From positions 22,525-86,524 of the forward strand of contig JARKSN010000313.1 in assembly GCA_029974275.1 (NCBI GenBank): DNA of 64,000 nucleotides. The letters are read 5' to 3'. Position numbers and translations under genes: made by a program. The stretch's first letter is position 1, and every line of letters starts with the position of its first letter. Shown here in pieces: positions 33,316-52,809 of the stretch. This stretch comes from Candidatus Hydrogenedentota bacterium (GTDB lineage: Bacteria > Hydrogenedentota > Hydrogenedentia > Hydrogenedentales > SLHB01). The notes beneath the pieces are model-generated. The model saw nothing but the letters and a program-made list of their open reading frames with translations, was not told the DNA's origin and made no database searches.

Positions 33316-33408
33316 TGGCGGAGAGAGCGGGATTTGAACCCGCGGTACCCCTTGTGAGGGTACACACGCTTTCCAAGCGTGCGCCATCAACCACTCGGCC
33401 ATCTCTCC
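33316..33408 (-). tRNA. tRNA-Ser(GGA)
   Basis: Reverse complement GGAGAGATGGCCGAGTGG...CTTGGAAAG...long variable arm...GGTTCAAATCCC...CTCTCCGCCA; CCA encoded; upstream TTGACA/TAAAAT promoter. Confidence 0.97.
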
Positions 33409-48487: not shown

Positions 48488-49831
48488 TCAGACCGAGACA
48501 GAGTCCGCCTCCTCCGGTTGGCGGACCGCCTTTCGGTCGCAACGACGGTCCCAGTGCCCCGTGATTCTTCCCGCGGCATCGTCGCGCTGGAAGAGATATG
48601 CAGGACAAATCGCGACGACGACAAATACGCCAAGAACCACAAAAAACGTGCGCTCATCAAAAATGCTGCTGCCTGCAAACAAAGGAATCGTTATGAAGAC
48701 AAATTGCGCCGTCGCGTTGGTCTCGAAAAAATCTTCCAGATCGCGACGTCCGCGCCGCCAATAGAGACGCAACAGCATCCACACAAACACGATCGGGCAA
48801 AGAAGACCTTGCTCCATGGCGCGGGTGAGCGCGTCGCTGTGCGCCGACAAACGAATGACGCCCGTTTCCTGGTAATGGGAGTCCGCGCCAAACCCGTGGC
48901 CCAACAAAGGCTTCTGCATGACAAGATCCCAATAGACGGCTTGCGTTTCCATTCGCTTTTGAACGCTTATGTCGTCCTCTACGCCGCCCTGCGGATTCAA
49001 CTTAAGGCTCAGCATGGCCTGCATGCGATCAATCAAATCGACTTCGCGACGAACCGTCGTGCTGCCCACGCGAGAAAGGTAAAGATTCAGCGCAGCCGCC
49101 GCGCCCCCTACGCAAATCGCCAAGACCCCAATCGTCACGAGAAGCCTTCCGCTAAACAGCCGGCTTCTCCATGAATGCCCAAGAATGAGCGCCCCCGTCA
49201 CGCCCGCTACGAGTATGCCGCTGCGAGAGCCCGTAACGAGTTCCAGCAGCAAAAAACCGCCGATGGCCGCCACATCGAACAAGACCCCCTTGCGTTGACG
49301 CAAAGCGTACCACGCAATAAACAGGAAACCTATGCTTACGGCGAGAGAATTCGGCTGCAGAAAAAAACCGAAGGGCCGGCCCATGTAGTCCGTCCGGGCA
49401 TTTGCCAGATCGGCGACCGCTGTGAAATGACCCGGCGCGATCAAACTAAGCGCCATGCCCGCGATGGTGATTAGGAGACTCGCGGAAAATGCGCGGCGCA
49501 GGGAAGGCAAACCGTTGGACAACGCATAGACCGCAACGCCGAAAAACAGAGTGGCGTTGTATGCCAACAGGCCAATCTCGCGAGCGTTGATCGTTGGCGA
49601 GTACAGAAGCGTCAACAAGGGCCACGCCAACAAAACAAAGAGCCACGCGCCAAAATCGCCCCGAAGCAAAAGAGGAGCCGTTCGCCTCGCCTTAATCGCC
49701 AAATAAAAAAGGTTCAACGCGAACAAGACGGCGCTGATCTCTCCGATCGAAACATGCAACGGCAACGCCGCGAACCGAAAGATCCCCGTTGCATTCAAGA
49801 CAATCACGACAAAATAAATCGCATCAACCAT
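48488..49831 (-). CDS. O-antigen ligase / Wzy polymerase-family membrane protein
   Basis: Multiple TM helices; GFFLQPN, TGSRSG, PLLGHG, AHSD. Confidence 0.8.
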   Translation of the reverse strand: MVDAIYFVVIVLNATGIFRFAALPLHVSIGEISAVLFALNLFYLAIKARRTAPLLLRGDFGAWLFVLLAWPLLTLLYSPTINAREIGLLAYNATLFFGVAVYALSNGLPSLRRAFSASLLITIAGMALSLIAPGHFTAVADLANARTDYMGRPFGFFLQPNSLAVSIGFLFIAWYALRQRKGVLFDVAAIGGFLLLELVTGSRSGILVAGVTGALILGHSWRSRLFSGRLLVTIGVLAICVGGAAAALNLYLSRVGSTTVRREVDLIDRMQAMLSLKLNPQGGVEDDISVQKRMETQAVYWDLVMQKPLLGHGFGADSHYQETGVIRLSAHSDALTRAMEQGLLCPIVFVWMLLRLYWRRGRRDLEDFFETNATAQFVFITIPLFAGSSIFDERTFFVVLGVFVVVAICPAYLFQRDDAAGRITGHWDRRCDRKAVRQPEEADSVSV

Positions 49832-50044
49832 GTGTGTCGTCGTTCATAGGGCCGCCCTTGCGAAGCGCATGTCCGCTCTCCTCGTCATCGGGCGTAGTGT
49901 AGCATGTTTTCGCCGTCATGTTCAGGGGGCGAAGAAGATAAACTTGACCCAGGAAGTCCTGTTCCGATCTGCGCCAGGGGCGAGCAACGCGGTTCGCGTT
50001 ACAAAAACGCCTTGCCAATAGAGGGGATTTTTTGAGGCGGCCGG

Positions 50045-50159
50045 AAAAAGGAGAGGAGCCGCTTCGAGAACACTAACCACTCACTGGGCCGTCTAGGCCA
50101 CTCCGTTAGTCCTATGCGGGGCTCTCGCCATGTTGTTCTCGGAGGCGGCTCCTTCATCC
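50045..50159 (-). ncRNA. Candidate orphan structured small RNA
   Basis: Promoter TTGCCT-17-TACAAT (extended TG) at 50194-50166; ~20-bp 5'/3' closing stem; GGC-GAGA-GCC hairpin; ACTAAC/GTTAGT stem; followed by U5. Confidence 0.55.
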
Positions 50160-50303
50160 ACCCTTATTGTAGCATGAGCCACCCAAAAAGGCAAGGAAGG
50201 CAAATGAAAAACTTCAAAAAAACCGGCGCGAAAAATGCTGCCCTTTACGCCAAAACTGCGCCAAAATATCAGCCCCCGCAACGCGCTCGACCTGTCAACG
50301 TCT

Positions 50304-51080
50304 CTACTCCGTTCGGGCATCGCCCGCGTCAGGAACAGCCAGCGCCGCAGCCAACACATCGACGCGCGACACGCCCGCCTTGCGCAAAACCTTGGCGCAT
50401 TCGCTGACCGTGCCGGAGGTGGTGACCACATCGTCGATGAGTAGCGCTGTCTTGCCTCGAAGGTGGACGCCGTCTTGAACGCCGAACGCCCCCACAACAT
50501 TCGCGCGGCGCTCAGAAGCGTTGGTCAAGCGACTTTGAACGCGCGTGGGCCGAAGACGGCGGAGAGATTCGTCCGGCTTGGCGTTCGGGAAAAACGGCAA
50601 CAGCTCGTGCATCAACAACCGGGCCTGATTGAAGCCGCGGTCCCGTTCCCGCACGCGATGCAGCGGCACGGGCACAAGATAGTCGTACTGCTCGGTCTCC
50701 ACTTCGCGCGCGACAAATTCGCCCATCATCGCCGCCAGGGGCCGCGCCAGACGTTGTCTGCCGCCGAATTTGAACAGTTTGATCGCGTCTTCGACCGCCC
50801 CGGCGTACACCGCAGCCCCATAGATGCGCCCATACGGTCGCGCACGGGCCGAGACCTCGCGGCAGTCCGCGCAAGGAAAATTGTGGAGCGTGCCGAAACC
50901 CACCGCTCCCTCGTGCGGCCGTCCGCAAAGCGTGCAGAAGGGCCGTTCCACGCGCGGACTCCGCTCCCAGCAGACGGGACAAAAGAAGCCGTTTTCCTCG
51001 GTCAGCAAGCGGATGCCGCATCGTTTGCAGAAAATTGGCAAGATCAAATTCTTCAGCGTCAACGTCCAGAACCCGATCAT
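50304..51080 (-). CDS. comF: ComF-family phosphoribosyltransferase-like protein with double zinc ribbon
   Basis: CxxC pairs; VPVPLH...RGFNQA; LIDDVVTTSGT. Confidence 0.9.
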   Translation of the reverse strand: MIGFWTLTLKNLILPIFCKRCGIRLLTEENGFFCPVCWERSPRVERPFCTLCGRPHEGAVGFGTLHNFPCADCREVSARARPYGRIYGAAVYAGAVEDAIKLFKFGGRQRLARPLAAMMGEFVAREVETEQYDYLVPVPLHRVRERDRGFNQARLLMHELLPFFPNAKPDESLRRLRPTRVQSRLTNASERRANVVGAFGVQDGVHLRGKTALLIDDVVTTSGTVSECAKVLRKAGVSRVDVLAAALAVPDAGDARTE

Positions 51081-51090
51081 GCCCTCGTCC

Positions 51091-52809
51091 TCATGCGCAT
51101 CCCCCCCGCTCCTCGCCCAACAAAATGCGGTGCTGACGCAAACGCTCGGCATCCGTGCGGGCCACGTGGATCGGTCTGCCCGCAACATCTTTGCCGGCGA
51201 CATACATGGCTGTCGCAACCGATCCCGGCGTGGGCACAAAGCACTGCACCTGCTTGGGCCGCCAATTCATCGATCGCAACCAGTCGGCCAGCGCGCGCAT
51301 GTCATCCTCGGTGCAGCCCGGAAACGCGCTCATGAGATACGGCACAATGTATTGACGCTTGCCGGCCCGCTGCGATTGCTCCTCGAAAACGCTGAGGAAC
51401 CGCTCAAACACCGTGAAACGCGGTTTGCGCATGAGATCGAGCACCGATGGCGCGCAATGCTCCGGGGCGAGTTTGAGTTGCCCCCCGACAAAGTTGGACG
51501 CCAGGTCGCGGACATAGGCGGGATTCTGAAGCGCCAGGTCGTAACGCACGCCGCTGGCAACGCGCACATGACCCATGCCGGGCACGGCCGAGATGCGCTG
51601 GAGCAAACGCGCGAGTTCGCCTTGTCCGTCGCGGAAACTCGGGCATATTTCCGGCGTGAGACAACTGCCGCGCCCGCAGTTTCGCGGATCGGCCGTGCAT
51701 CGTGAAGCCCACATGTTGGCGCTGGGACCTCCAATATCCGAGAGGCTGCCTTTCCAATCGGAATGCCGCGTCAACGCGCAAATCTCGTCTTCGATCGACT
51801 TCGCGGAACGCGAGGCGATGTGACGCCCCTGGTGCATTGCGAGCGAACAGAACGAACACCCGCCGCCGCATCCGCGATGGGTGGTGACGCTGAACTGAAT
51901 CATCTCGACGGCCGGAATTCGTTCCGTATAGGCGGGATGCGGTTTTCGCGTGAACGGAAGGCCATAGAGACGATCCAGCATCTCTTGCGTCAATGGCGCG
52001 GCGGGCGGCGCAAAATACACGCGGCGCCCGCCCGATTCCTGCGCAAGCCACGGACCGCCATGATGCACCTGTTGCTCGATCGCCAACGTCGCCGGCATGA
52101 GCGCCTCCGGATTCGCCACGATCTCCTCGTGCGACGGCAAGTCTTCTGTTTCCGGCGGCGCGACGTAACCGCGGGGTGGAACGAAAACAGTGCCCGGAAC
52201 GCCGCACAAAGCATCGAGCGGACGTCCCGCGGCGCTCTCGATACGGCGCGCTATCTCCAGAATCGCGCGCTCACCCATTCCATACACGACCAGATCGGCC
52301 TTGCTATCCAGAAGGATGGAGCGACGGAGTTTGTCCGACCAAAAGTCGTAATGCGTCGCGCGGCGCAGCGAAGCCTCGATGCCGCCGATCACCACCGGAA
52401 GCCCCGGAAACGCGTGACGCACAAGATTGGCATAGACCATTGACGCGCGGTTTGGCCGGGCCCCGTGGCGATCGCCGGGCGTGTAGGCGTCATCACGGCG
52501 CAGTTTGCGAAAGGCGGTATAGTGCGCGAGCATCGAATCGAGCGCGCCGGCGGCAACGCCTGCAAATAGCCTCGGGCGGCCCATGCGCGCAATATCCTCG
52601 GGAGAATCCCAACGCGGTTGCGCGACAATCCCGACGCGGTATCCGTGATCCGCCAGCCAGCGCCCCAACAGCGCCGCGCCAAACGCGGGATGATCCACAT
52701 ACGCATCGCCCGTCACGAGCAAGATATCCAACTCGGACCAGCCGATCCCGTTCATCTCCGCGCGTGTCATCGGCAACGGAGACGCCGCATCGATAGCTGT
52801 ATGATTCAT
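51091..52809 (-). CDS. YgiQ-family radical SAM protein
   Basis: VTGDAYVDHPAFG, GGIEASLRR, HRGCGGGCSFC, DIGGPSANM. Confidence 0.93.
   Translation of the reverse strand: MNHTAIDAASPLPMTRAEMNGIGWSELDILLVTGDAYVDHPAFGAALLGRWLADHGYRVGIVAQPRWDSPEDIARMGRPRLFAGVAAGALDSMLAHYTAFRKLRRDDAYTPGDRHGARPNRASMVYANLVRHAFPGLPVVIGGIEASLRRATHYDFWSDKLRRSILLDSKADLVVYGMGERAILEIARRIESAAGRPLDALCGVPGTVFVPPRGYVAPPETEDLPSHEEIVANPEALMPATLAIEQQVHHGGPWLAQESGGRRVYFAPPAAPLTQEMLDRLYGLPFTRKPHPAYTERIPAVEMIQFSVTTHRGCGGGCSFCSLAMHQGRHIASRSAKSIEDEICALTRHSDWKGSLSDIGGPSANMWASRCTADPRNCGRGSCLTPEICPSFRDGQGELARLLQRISAVPGMGHVRVASGVRYDLALQNPAYVRDLASNFVGGQLKLAPEHCAPSVLDLMRKPRFTVFERFLSVFEEQSQRAGKRQYIVPYLMSAFPGCTEDDMRALADWLRSMNWRPKQVQCFVPTPGSVATAMYVAGKDVAGRPIHVARTDAERLRQHRILLGEERGGCA

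Follow-up and report, generated by a model that had tools for sequence, protein, structure and literature searches.

We identified a predicted noncoding RNA (ncRNA) of ~115 nucleotides (nt) on the minus strand of a 64-kb stretch of DNA from Candidatus Hydrogenedentota (hereafter the window, whose numbering is used for all positions). A preliminary description, made from the letters of the window, had proposed a free-standing structured RNA of ~110 nt at this locus. Our analysis makes it highly probable that positions 50159–50045 (minus strand) represent a genuine, independent gene for a structured ncRNA of a new family. The architecture of the family consists of a closing stem (P1), an asymmetric internal loop, a second stem (P2/P3), and a three-way junction from which hairpins A and B extend, as shown by covariation across 50 homologs. 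Its recurrence in 74 of the 135 genomes of the phylum is far beyond chance. The family of this predicted RNA has not been catalogued before, and in the genomes searched its members were confined to Hydrogenedentota. The elements assigned to the locus are as follows, in the order of the minus strand:

50189–50194, minus strand: −35 hexamer TTGCCT, belonging to the sole promoter-like site in 49500–50700 and kept in relatives.
50166–50174, minus strand: extended −10 element TGcTACAAT, with the hexamer TACAAT at 50171–50166, assigned by the consensus scan and relatives.
50045–50159, minus strand: predicted RNA of ~115 nt, its start placed from the −10 element and its end from the U run.
50145–50159, minus strand: 5′ strand of P1, GGAUGAAGGAGCCGC, with which the RNA starts; pairs with 50050–50062.
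50142–50144, minus strand: 5′ side of the asymmetric internal loop, CUC (UAG in most homologs), from the alignments.
50135–50141, minus strand: 5′ strand of P2, CGAGAAC, pairing with GUUCUCG.
50109–50122, minus strand: hairpin A, GCCC-CGCAUA-GGAC, with one C-A mismatch; consensus GUCC-N6-GGAC.
50087–50099, minus strand: hairpin B, GGCC-UAGAC-GGCC, from single-sequence folds of homologs with differing sequences.
50065–50071, minus strand: 3′ strand of P2, GUUCUCG, from the fold and the alignments.
50063–50064, minus strand: 3′ side of the internal loop, AA, from the alignments.
50050–50062, minus strand: 3′ strand of P1, GCGGCUCCUCUCC, which doubles as the predicted terminator stem and abuts the U run.
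50045–50049, minus strand: U5 tail, directly abutting the 3′ strand of P1.

The architecture was examined as a 35-pair structure, written by hand from single-sequence folds of the 50 homologs and then tested for covariation on a structure-blind MAFFT alignment of these sequences (58% mean column identity). Of the 1659 cells, 83.1% were paired, compared with 73.5 ± 0.5% in shuffles (0/500 reached the observed value) and 30–45% when the pairing partners were slid. Changes on both sides were observed in 28 of the 35 pairs (19.9 in column shuffles; 15–21 with slid partners), with 185 double-change cells (62.5 and 49–86, respectively) and a covariation score of 0.326 (0.183 shuffled; 0.07–0.14 slid). 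The model-fitted alignment, which leans towards the model, yielded 85.4% paired cells, 28 of 34 pairs changed on both sides, and a score of 0.347. Covariation, which the preliminary description had named as a check on its proposal, is strong in this set of homologs. RNAalifold recovered only the nine outer P1 pairs from the same MAFFT alignment, because the sequence alignment is poor in the interior.

The individual helices contributed to this signal. P1 spans 9–12 bp in the homologs, typically GCGGAAGYYGCG with CGCNGCUUCCGC, and shows compensatory changes in 10 of 12 pairs, with 92.8% of cells paired in the MAFFT alignment; at column 9, for example, 25 sequences have A-U and 21 have G-C. Between P1 and P2, most alignment rows contain a 3-nt loop opposite 1–2 nt, which reads UAG opposite A in most sequences and CUC opposite AA in the window. 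A kink-turn reading of this loop, compared by eye with the kink-turn consensus, did not fit. P2 is typically CGAGAG with CUCUCG and continues into a variable P3; its CGAGA/UCUCG core was invariant in the first 13 homologs and shifts to CGAAA/UUUCG and similar pairs in the wider set. Hairpin A has compensatory changes in three of five pairs, and its cells pair in 91.7% (MAFFT) or 95.9% (model-fitted) of cases. All four modelled pairs of hairpin B show compensatory changes; this hairpin varies in sequence and length, and the single-stranded return to P3 measures 10–15 nt.

One P1 position (alignment column 13 with 117; window 50147 with 50059) has a non-standard pair in 18 of the 50 sequences. 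The mismatches are C-A, U-C, U-U, and C-C, flanked by well-paired columns, and the window has a normal C-G pair there. In the longer RNAs described below, this position may represent a conserved mismatch or a point of recognition.

The distribution of the family was determined with covariance models built in three rounds, from 2 (R1), 13 (R2), and 50 (R3) sequences. A BLAST search of the locus against 40 relatives returned a single homolog (G019), 68% identical over the whole element, which keeps the −35 and −10 elements, the outer stem, and the T tail in a different setting, with a convergent NHL-repeat gene 30 nt downstream. R1 matched 13 of 54 family genomes, and R2 matched 52 genomes whether the 133 of the order or the 135 of the phylum were searched. 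R3 detected the RNA in 74 of the 135 phylum species genomes (59 of the 86 high-quality genomes), representing 11 of the 15 families, nearly always as one full-length match per genome. The window sequence, which was among the R3 building sequences, scored 69.3 bits (E = 8.4e-15 per genome). Two short matches in one f3 genome, G037 (49 and 65 nt; 28 and 22 bits), were not counted as members.

Scanning 185,579 species genomes for an exact pattern yielded eight matches, seven of them confirmed by the model. Five of these seven carry the names Candidatus Hydrogenedentota, Hydrogenedentales, or Hydrogenedentes, and one is labelled 'uncultured Nitrospirales'. The eighth, in an alphaproteobacterial metagenome-assembled genome, sits in coding-looking sequence and was rejected as a chance match. 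DNA matching the window occurs in wastewater, activated-sludge, and anaerobic-digester metagenomes.

The promoter is also conserved in the window's family. The −35 and −10 hexamers are separated by a 17-nt spacer that ends in TGc, and six bases lie between the −10 hexamer and the RNA. A consensus promoter scan of 49500–50700 returned TTGCCT-17-TGcTACAAT as the only site, whereas shuffled sequences averaged 0.4. On the minus strand, the RNA then runs from GGAUGAAGGAGCCGCCUCCGAGAAC to GUUCUCGAAGCGGCUCCUCUCC, followed by UUUUU at 50049–50045; all of the sequence elements quoted in the preliminary description, including this promoter and the U tail, were located on this strand. The covariance-model match extends over 50039–50159 (genome coordinates G000:C222:72563-72683). 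In 20 of the 24 loci of the window's family, TTGnnn-N16-18-TAnnn[AT] precedes the RNA, and in 19 of the 24 the TAnnn[AT] ends exactly 6 nt ahead of the model match; the TG of an extended −10 is present in most of these promoters. At that fixed place, the 26 loci of other families all lack such an element. Together with the ~115-nt length and the lack of conserved neighbours (see below), the constant promoter position in the window's family agrees with the free-standing RNA originally proposed. The sequence and its conservation suggest that the RNA would be transcribed from this sigma-70-type promoter with an extended −10, and that the GC-rich P1 with its immediate U run would serve as an intrinsic terminator. 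A T run of at least four is present in the tails of 32 of the 50 homologs (counted from per-locus values), and most other tails are T-rich.

A 52-amino-acid (aa) ATG open reading frame (ORF) at 49999–50157 (minus strand) overlaps the RNA almost fully. The homologs differ there by 1- and 2-nt indels and paired substitutions, and the ORF is not conserved among them; it is therefore not to be annotated as a gene.

We then compared the consensus with the fold of the window sequence. The minimum free energy (MFE) of the 116-nt minus-strand RNA is −49.1 kcal/mol (z = −3.8), and none of 200 shuffles was as stable. In this structure, the RNA ends pair over 21 bp, in line with the ~20 bp given earlier, and enclose a multi-branch junction. 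The junction as first drawn was right in being multi-branched and in its GGCC-TAGAC-GGCC hairpin, which is the conserved hairpin B, but its other two elements are specific to this genome. The GGC-GAGA-GCC hairpin (50129–50120) appears only in this genome's MFE structure and takes the 5′ half of hairpin A, and the same holds for the ACUAAC/GUUAGU arm (50110–50105 with 50077–50072), which is likewise confined to that structure. A U-to-C change in the window gives hairpin A its C-A mismatch, and the local MFE favours the GAGA hairpin and the ACUAAC arm.

The plus strand of the window folds more stably than the minus strand (−53.5 kcal/mol, z = −5.5), which makes fair the caveat of the preliminary description about plus-strand pairing; because the plus strand folds better there, the single sequence leaves the strand undecided. 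The locus could accordingly be read as a plus-strand RNA or, at the DNA level, as an inverted repeat that binds a protein, serves recombination, or terminates transcription in both directions, and the models do score the reverse strand, weakly (for example, 16.8 vs 86.6 bits). We regard this as very improbable. In the paired cells of the alignment, G-U/U-G pairs number 129 against 59 A-C/C-A on the minus-strand reading, which is the bias expected if that reading is the RNA. The promoter and the T tail are conserved for the minus strand, the element is single-copy, and the compensatory changes maintain hairpins A and B, which neither a simple terminator nor a palindrome would need. A dispersed repeat of the repetitive extragenic palindrome or miniature inverted-repeat transposable element type, or a plain terminator, was rejected on the same grounds of copy number and compensated internal hairpins. 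The preliminary description had itself raised a multi-copy DNA repeat as an adverse outcome; in the 4.38-Mb, 100%-complete genome of origin, we found one copy, the other BLAST matches being chance hits of 14–20 nt.

Several observations weigh against an independent minus-strand RNA gene with a function in trans. The greater stability of the plus strand in the window is one of them. Termination by P1 does not appear uniform, because a T run of at least four follows P1 in only the 32 homologs mentioned above. R3 did not find the RNA in 61 of the 135 phylum genomes, including family f3 (0/14), genus g4 (0/8), and genus g46 (0/4), nor was it found at E ≤ 1 in four 96–99% complete genomes of the window's own family; the RNA is therefore dispensable, or too diverged for detection, in those lineages. 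One run labelled RNA-Seq, rated 'probably DNA', covers 49316–49528 and 50394–50435 and not the RNA, and allows no conclusion either way. Column shuffles can be beaten by related sequences that have no structure at all; sliding the partners, a control that preserves relatedness, gave clearly lower values and answers this caveat in part. Finally, the evidence for the proposed action on a protein or ligand in trans is the pattern of conservation.

The window locus is flanked by two genes on the same strand:

50304–51239, minus strand: ComF-like gene with a double zinc ribbon (DZR_2) and a phosphoribosyltransferase domain, upstream of the RNA.
48488–49831, minus strand: gene with a Wzy_C/O-antigen-ligase domain, downstream of the RNA by 208 nt.

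A strain variant seen in DNA run X3 (contigs only) has 26 listed differences over 48500–51500, none of them within 49836–50777, which takes in the RNA together with the 3′ end of the comF-like gene. The candidate −10 element assigned earlier to the Wzy-like gene (TGCTACACT, 49896–49904, minus strand) is present as sequence but was not listed by our scan, which needs both hexamers.

The neighbours of the RNA are not conserved. We collected the nearest non-overlapping ORFs of at least 80 aa on either side of the 50 loci (crude calls; 97 ORFs) and scanned them with Pfam. The flanking families were mutually unrelated and included FlgK (four loci, all in one genus), CBS (four), URO-D (three), NadA (two), a sugar transporter (two), ADP-ribosylglycohydrolase (two), RecG, COX15, and a NotI-type endonuclease. 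The comF-like and Wzy-like genes each adjoin the RNA in 1 of the 50 loci, in the window's genome only; the comF-downstream link suggested in the preliminary description is therefore no property of the family. No hpf or raiA neighbour occurred among the 97 flanking ORFs. The downstream ORF is antisense to the RNA in 25 of 48 loci, and the upstream ORF in 17 of the 24 loci of the window's family. With neighbours that are unrelated and often on the opposite strand, a 5′ leader or 3′ untranslated region is excluded as a general role. Only one of the 50 loci, that of genome G025, has a tRNA within 1.5 kb: a tRNA-Asn(GTT) (L061 1350–1425, minus strand) follows the RNA on the same strand at a distance of ~75 nt.

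These data also bear on the RNA as a cis leader, a riboswitch or attenuator of the Wzy/O-antigen-ligase-like gene in which P1 and the U tail would form a regulated terminator. Such a reading could draw on the position of that gene on the same strand and on the likeness of a P1-closed three-way junction to many aptamers, with P1 and U5 able to terminate, but we give it only a slight chance, since the Wzy-like neighbour is unique to this genome and the downstream ORFs of other loci are unrelated in family and often opposite in strand. Moreover, we found no conserved anti-terminator alternative and no match to a riboswitch family.

Comparison with known RNA classes gave no assignment. With Rfam 15 (4227 models) at the gathering threshold, the whole window yielded only a tRNA at 33319–33408 and nothing at the RNA; lowering the threshold to E ≤ 10 over 49850–50350 gave no match, which bears out the earlier placement of the RNA outside the common classes. 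Ten homolog loci searched at E ≤ 1 likewise gave no match to the RNA, with just a tRNA and a sub-threshold M23 match elsewhere. The tRNA that is the sole Rfam match of the 64-kb window (minus strand) is 90 nt long and has a long variable arm, as judged by length. At the level of titles and abstracts, a full-text literature search returned no description of a Hydrogenedentota ncRNA and no riboswitch link.

Among RNAs of housekeeping or ribonucleoprotein (RNP) type, Y RNAs pair their 5′ and 3′ termini into a long stem, have an internal loop, a branched, tRNA-like distal domain, and a Ro-binding stem sequence, and belong to genomes that encode the Ro60 orthologue Rsr, usually close by; 6S RNA is a ~180-nt rod with a central bubble, present as one housekeeping copy per genome; and raiA motif RNAs often adjoin comFC, with a recurrent place between comFC and raiA/hpf. 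A divergent member of one of these classes, or of the signal recognition particle (SRP) RNA, was considered because the end-to-end stem, internal loop, and branched distal domain recall the Y RNA fold, and because the comF-like gene upstream recalls the raiA–comFC adjacency. We consider this the least probable of the readings weighed here. For the bacterial Y RNA (YrlA/Yrn1), the TROVE/Rsr family PF05731 has no match in the 100%-complete genome of origin, while Deinococcus and Bacteroides controls were detected; no Y-RNA-type Rfam match was obtained, and ARAGORN found no tRNA-like gene at the locus. The genome has its own 6S gene elsewhere (G000:C106, 60.3 bits, above the cut-off), and the RNA described here is shorter (~115 nt) and branched. 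A small SRP RNA gene, a class recognised by its conserved domain IV hairpin, is also located elsewhere (G000:C81, 72.2 bits, above the cut-off), with no match at our locus, and the raiA motif was rejected for want of an Rfam match at E ≤ 10 and for the single comF-adjacent locus. The RNA is missing from many complete genomes and is therefore not a universal housekeeping RNA.

What the RNA does can be approached through where it is conserved. In the window's family, no unpaired conserved run exceeds ~3 nt, and the invariant positions fall in P1, P2, and hairpin A. Because conservation resides in helices, the internal loop, and junctions rather than in a long single-stranded seed, because no neighbour is conserved, and because the fold recurs as a repeated module, we tentatively propose that the RNA works in trans by virtue of its three-dimensional fold, partnering a protein, binding a ligand, or serving as an RNA-binding scaffold. 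This reading seems plausible to us, at something short of an even chance. In the window's own family, the module would be the whole RNA; in most other families it would be the 3′-terminal module of a ~310–490-nt transcript that contains further stem-plus-junction modules, an arrangement that is partly shown (see below).

The main rival is a trans-acting base-pairing small RNA (sRNA), in which an exposed loop or junction would pair with mRNAs and the terminal stem and U tail would act only as terminator or stabiliser. The RNA shows traits usual for bacterial sRNAs: it is small, has its own promoter and an end like that of an intrinsic terminator, lies among variable genes, and is restricted to one lineage. 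Sequence conservation is also seen in the loop of hairpin A and in the junction that lies 3′ of hairpin B (AGACC...ACCAG outside f1). We nevertheless judge this rival unlikely. The AGACC junction is absent from f1 and f13, the invariants of the window's family lie in helices as stated above, and the dense covariation and the build-up from similar modules are unusual for seed-type sRNAs. An Hfq- or ProQ-dependent sRNA was rejected since PF17209 (Hfq) and PF04352 (ProQ) have no match in the 100%-complete genome of origin, with controls detected; chaperone-independent pairing remains compatible with this result.

A CsrB/RsmZ-type sponge for CsrA, with the number of modules tuning its capacity, was also weighed. 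The genome of origin encodes CsrA, as do 104 of the 135 phylum genomes; every module keeps two GGA triplets (GGAAG in P1 and ACAGGA in hairpin A), and the module number varies between lineages, as in Csr/Rsm sponges. However, the triplets lie inside covarying helices, not in loops, and the occurrence of the RNA does not follow that of CsrA. No CsrA match was obtained in 14 of the 74 RNA-positive genomes, including 10 in family f11 and the 100%-complete G007. Conversely, genus g4 (CsrA 8/8, RNA 0/8) and family f3 (CsrA 12/14, RNA 0/14) carry CsrA and lack the RNA. A sponge is accordingly a faint prospect. CsrA was present in only 1 of the 23 genomes of family f11, which suggests a lineage-specific loss of the Csr system there.

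Returning to the structured RNA itself, we found that it is longer in sister families. In families other than f1 and f13, the stretch immediately 5′ of the module is non-coding and likewise conserved. This upstream unit has the topology of the module and the hairpin-A motif (GGUGGAARYAG ... GUCCUCAARACAGGAC ... GGCC..GCCCAGACC ... CURYUWYYCCACC). R3 detects it weakly, for example at 13.9–16.2 bits (13.9 for L053 1380–1498), and the R2 search did not detect it. In 19 of the 21 loci outside f1 and f13, a promoter of the style seen in the window's family (TTGnnn-16/17-TGnTAnnnT) is located 198–369 nt upstream of the module, and none of these 19 has a promoter next to the module. Judging from the promoter position, members of the family appear to comprise a single module, as in the window's lineage, or several modules totalling ~310–490 nt, if the latter are single transcripts.

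In family f5, seven sequences measured from promoter to tail are 423–449 nt long, and their RNAalifold consensus consists of four stem-plus-junction units. In these loci (L053 1180–1626, plus strand; L047, L054, L055, L045, L048, and L050), the module is the last of the four units, and this conserved non-coding stretch begins immediately behind a TTGCAA-16-TGGTATACT promoter, itself located past the stop codon of an FG-GAP-type gene. Provided that it is transcribed as a whole, the f5 stretch is a candidate for a large ornate RNA. In the genome of origin, BLAST with the f5 upstream modules as queries, an insensitive test, gave only chance matches (E ≥ 0.65). Family f13 (L065 and L067–L070; AT-rich genomes) has a shorter version of ~115 nt, without the CGAGAG/CUCUCG P2, and a small extra hairpin (AAAGGUUU...AAACCUUU) just upstream replaces the second module.

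It is possible, at somewhat longer odds than the trans action proposed above, that the phylum has its own class of large modular RNAs, in which this module is always 3′-terminal, and that the 115-nt RNA is the smallest, one-module representative. If so, one strong promoter would, in most other families of the phylum, drive a 310–490-nt transcript composed of two to four similar units, each a long stem with a three-way junction and two hairpins at its tip. The long RNA would then join the large ornate bacterial ncRNAs (OLE, ROOL, GOLLD, and raiA) and could be an RNA-only assembly or the scaffold of a multi-copy RNP. The window module would be the unit that bears the conserved activity or binding site.

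The predicted gene adds a well-supported structured RNA family, absent from Rfam, to the uncultured phylum Hydrogenedentota. The alignment and the covariance model are usable as they stand, and the 115-nt minimal unit is convenient for probing, crystallography, and cryo-electron microscopy. Ribozymes, riboswitch-like sensors, and RNP cores have repeatedly emerged from strongly covarying structured RNAs that had no obvious role. An ncRNA gene should be annotated at this locus, and the 52-aa ORF left uncalled.

Among known systems, CsrB, RsmY, and RsmZ share with this RNA repeated similar modules in lineage-variable number, GGA triplets, and a CsrA-encoding host; in our RNA, by contrast, the triplets are base-paired in covarying helices and the RNA does not track CsrA. 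The Y RNAs that act with Rsr, the Ro60 orthologue, resemble it in their size of ~110 nt, end-to-end stem, internal loop, and branched distal domain, but the genome of origin has no TROVE gene, and the RNA has no Rfam match and no tRNA-like domain (ARAGORN). A closer parallel is provided by the orphan 'Gene; sRNA' motifs of Rfam that have no known function, such as Acido-Lenti-1, Bacteroidales-1, and Chloroflexi-1. Like them, the predicted RNA is free-standing, is confined to one phylum, covaries strongly, and has neither a conserved neighbour nor an assigned function; unlike them, it matches none of the Rfam 15 models and occurs either as one module alone or as the end of multi-module RNAs. 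OLE, ROOL, GOLLD, HEARO, and the raiA motif are the large 'ornate' ncRNAs of bacteria. The RNA of the window differs from these in its length of only ~115 nt and in having no Rfam homology, and its comF adjacency, shared with many raiA loci, is limited to 1 of 50 loci. The long forms of ~310–490 nt, in turn, resemble the ornate RNAs in being large, multi-domain, and highly structured, with promoters that point to independent transcription, and the apparent growth of the module to RNAs of ~450 nt in sister families makes this family a candidate for that rare class.

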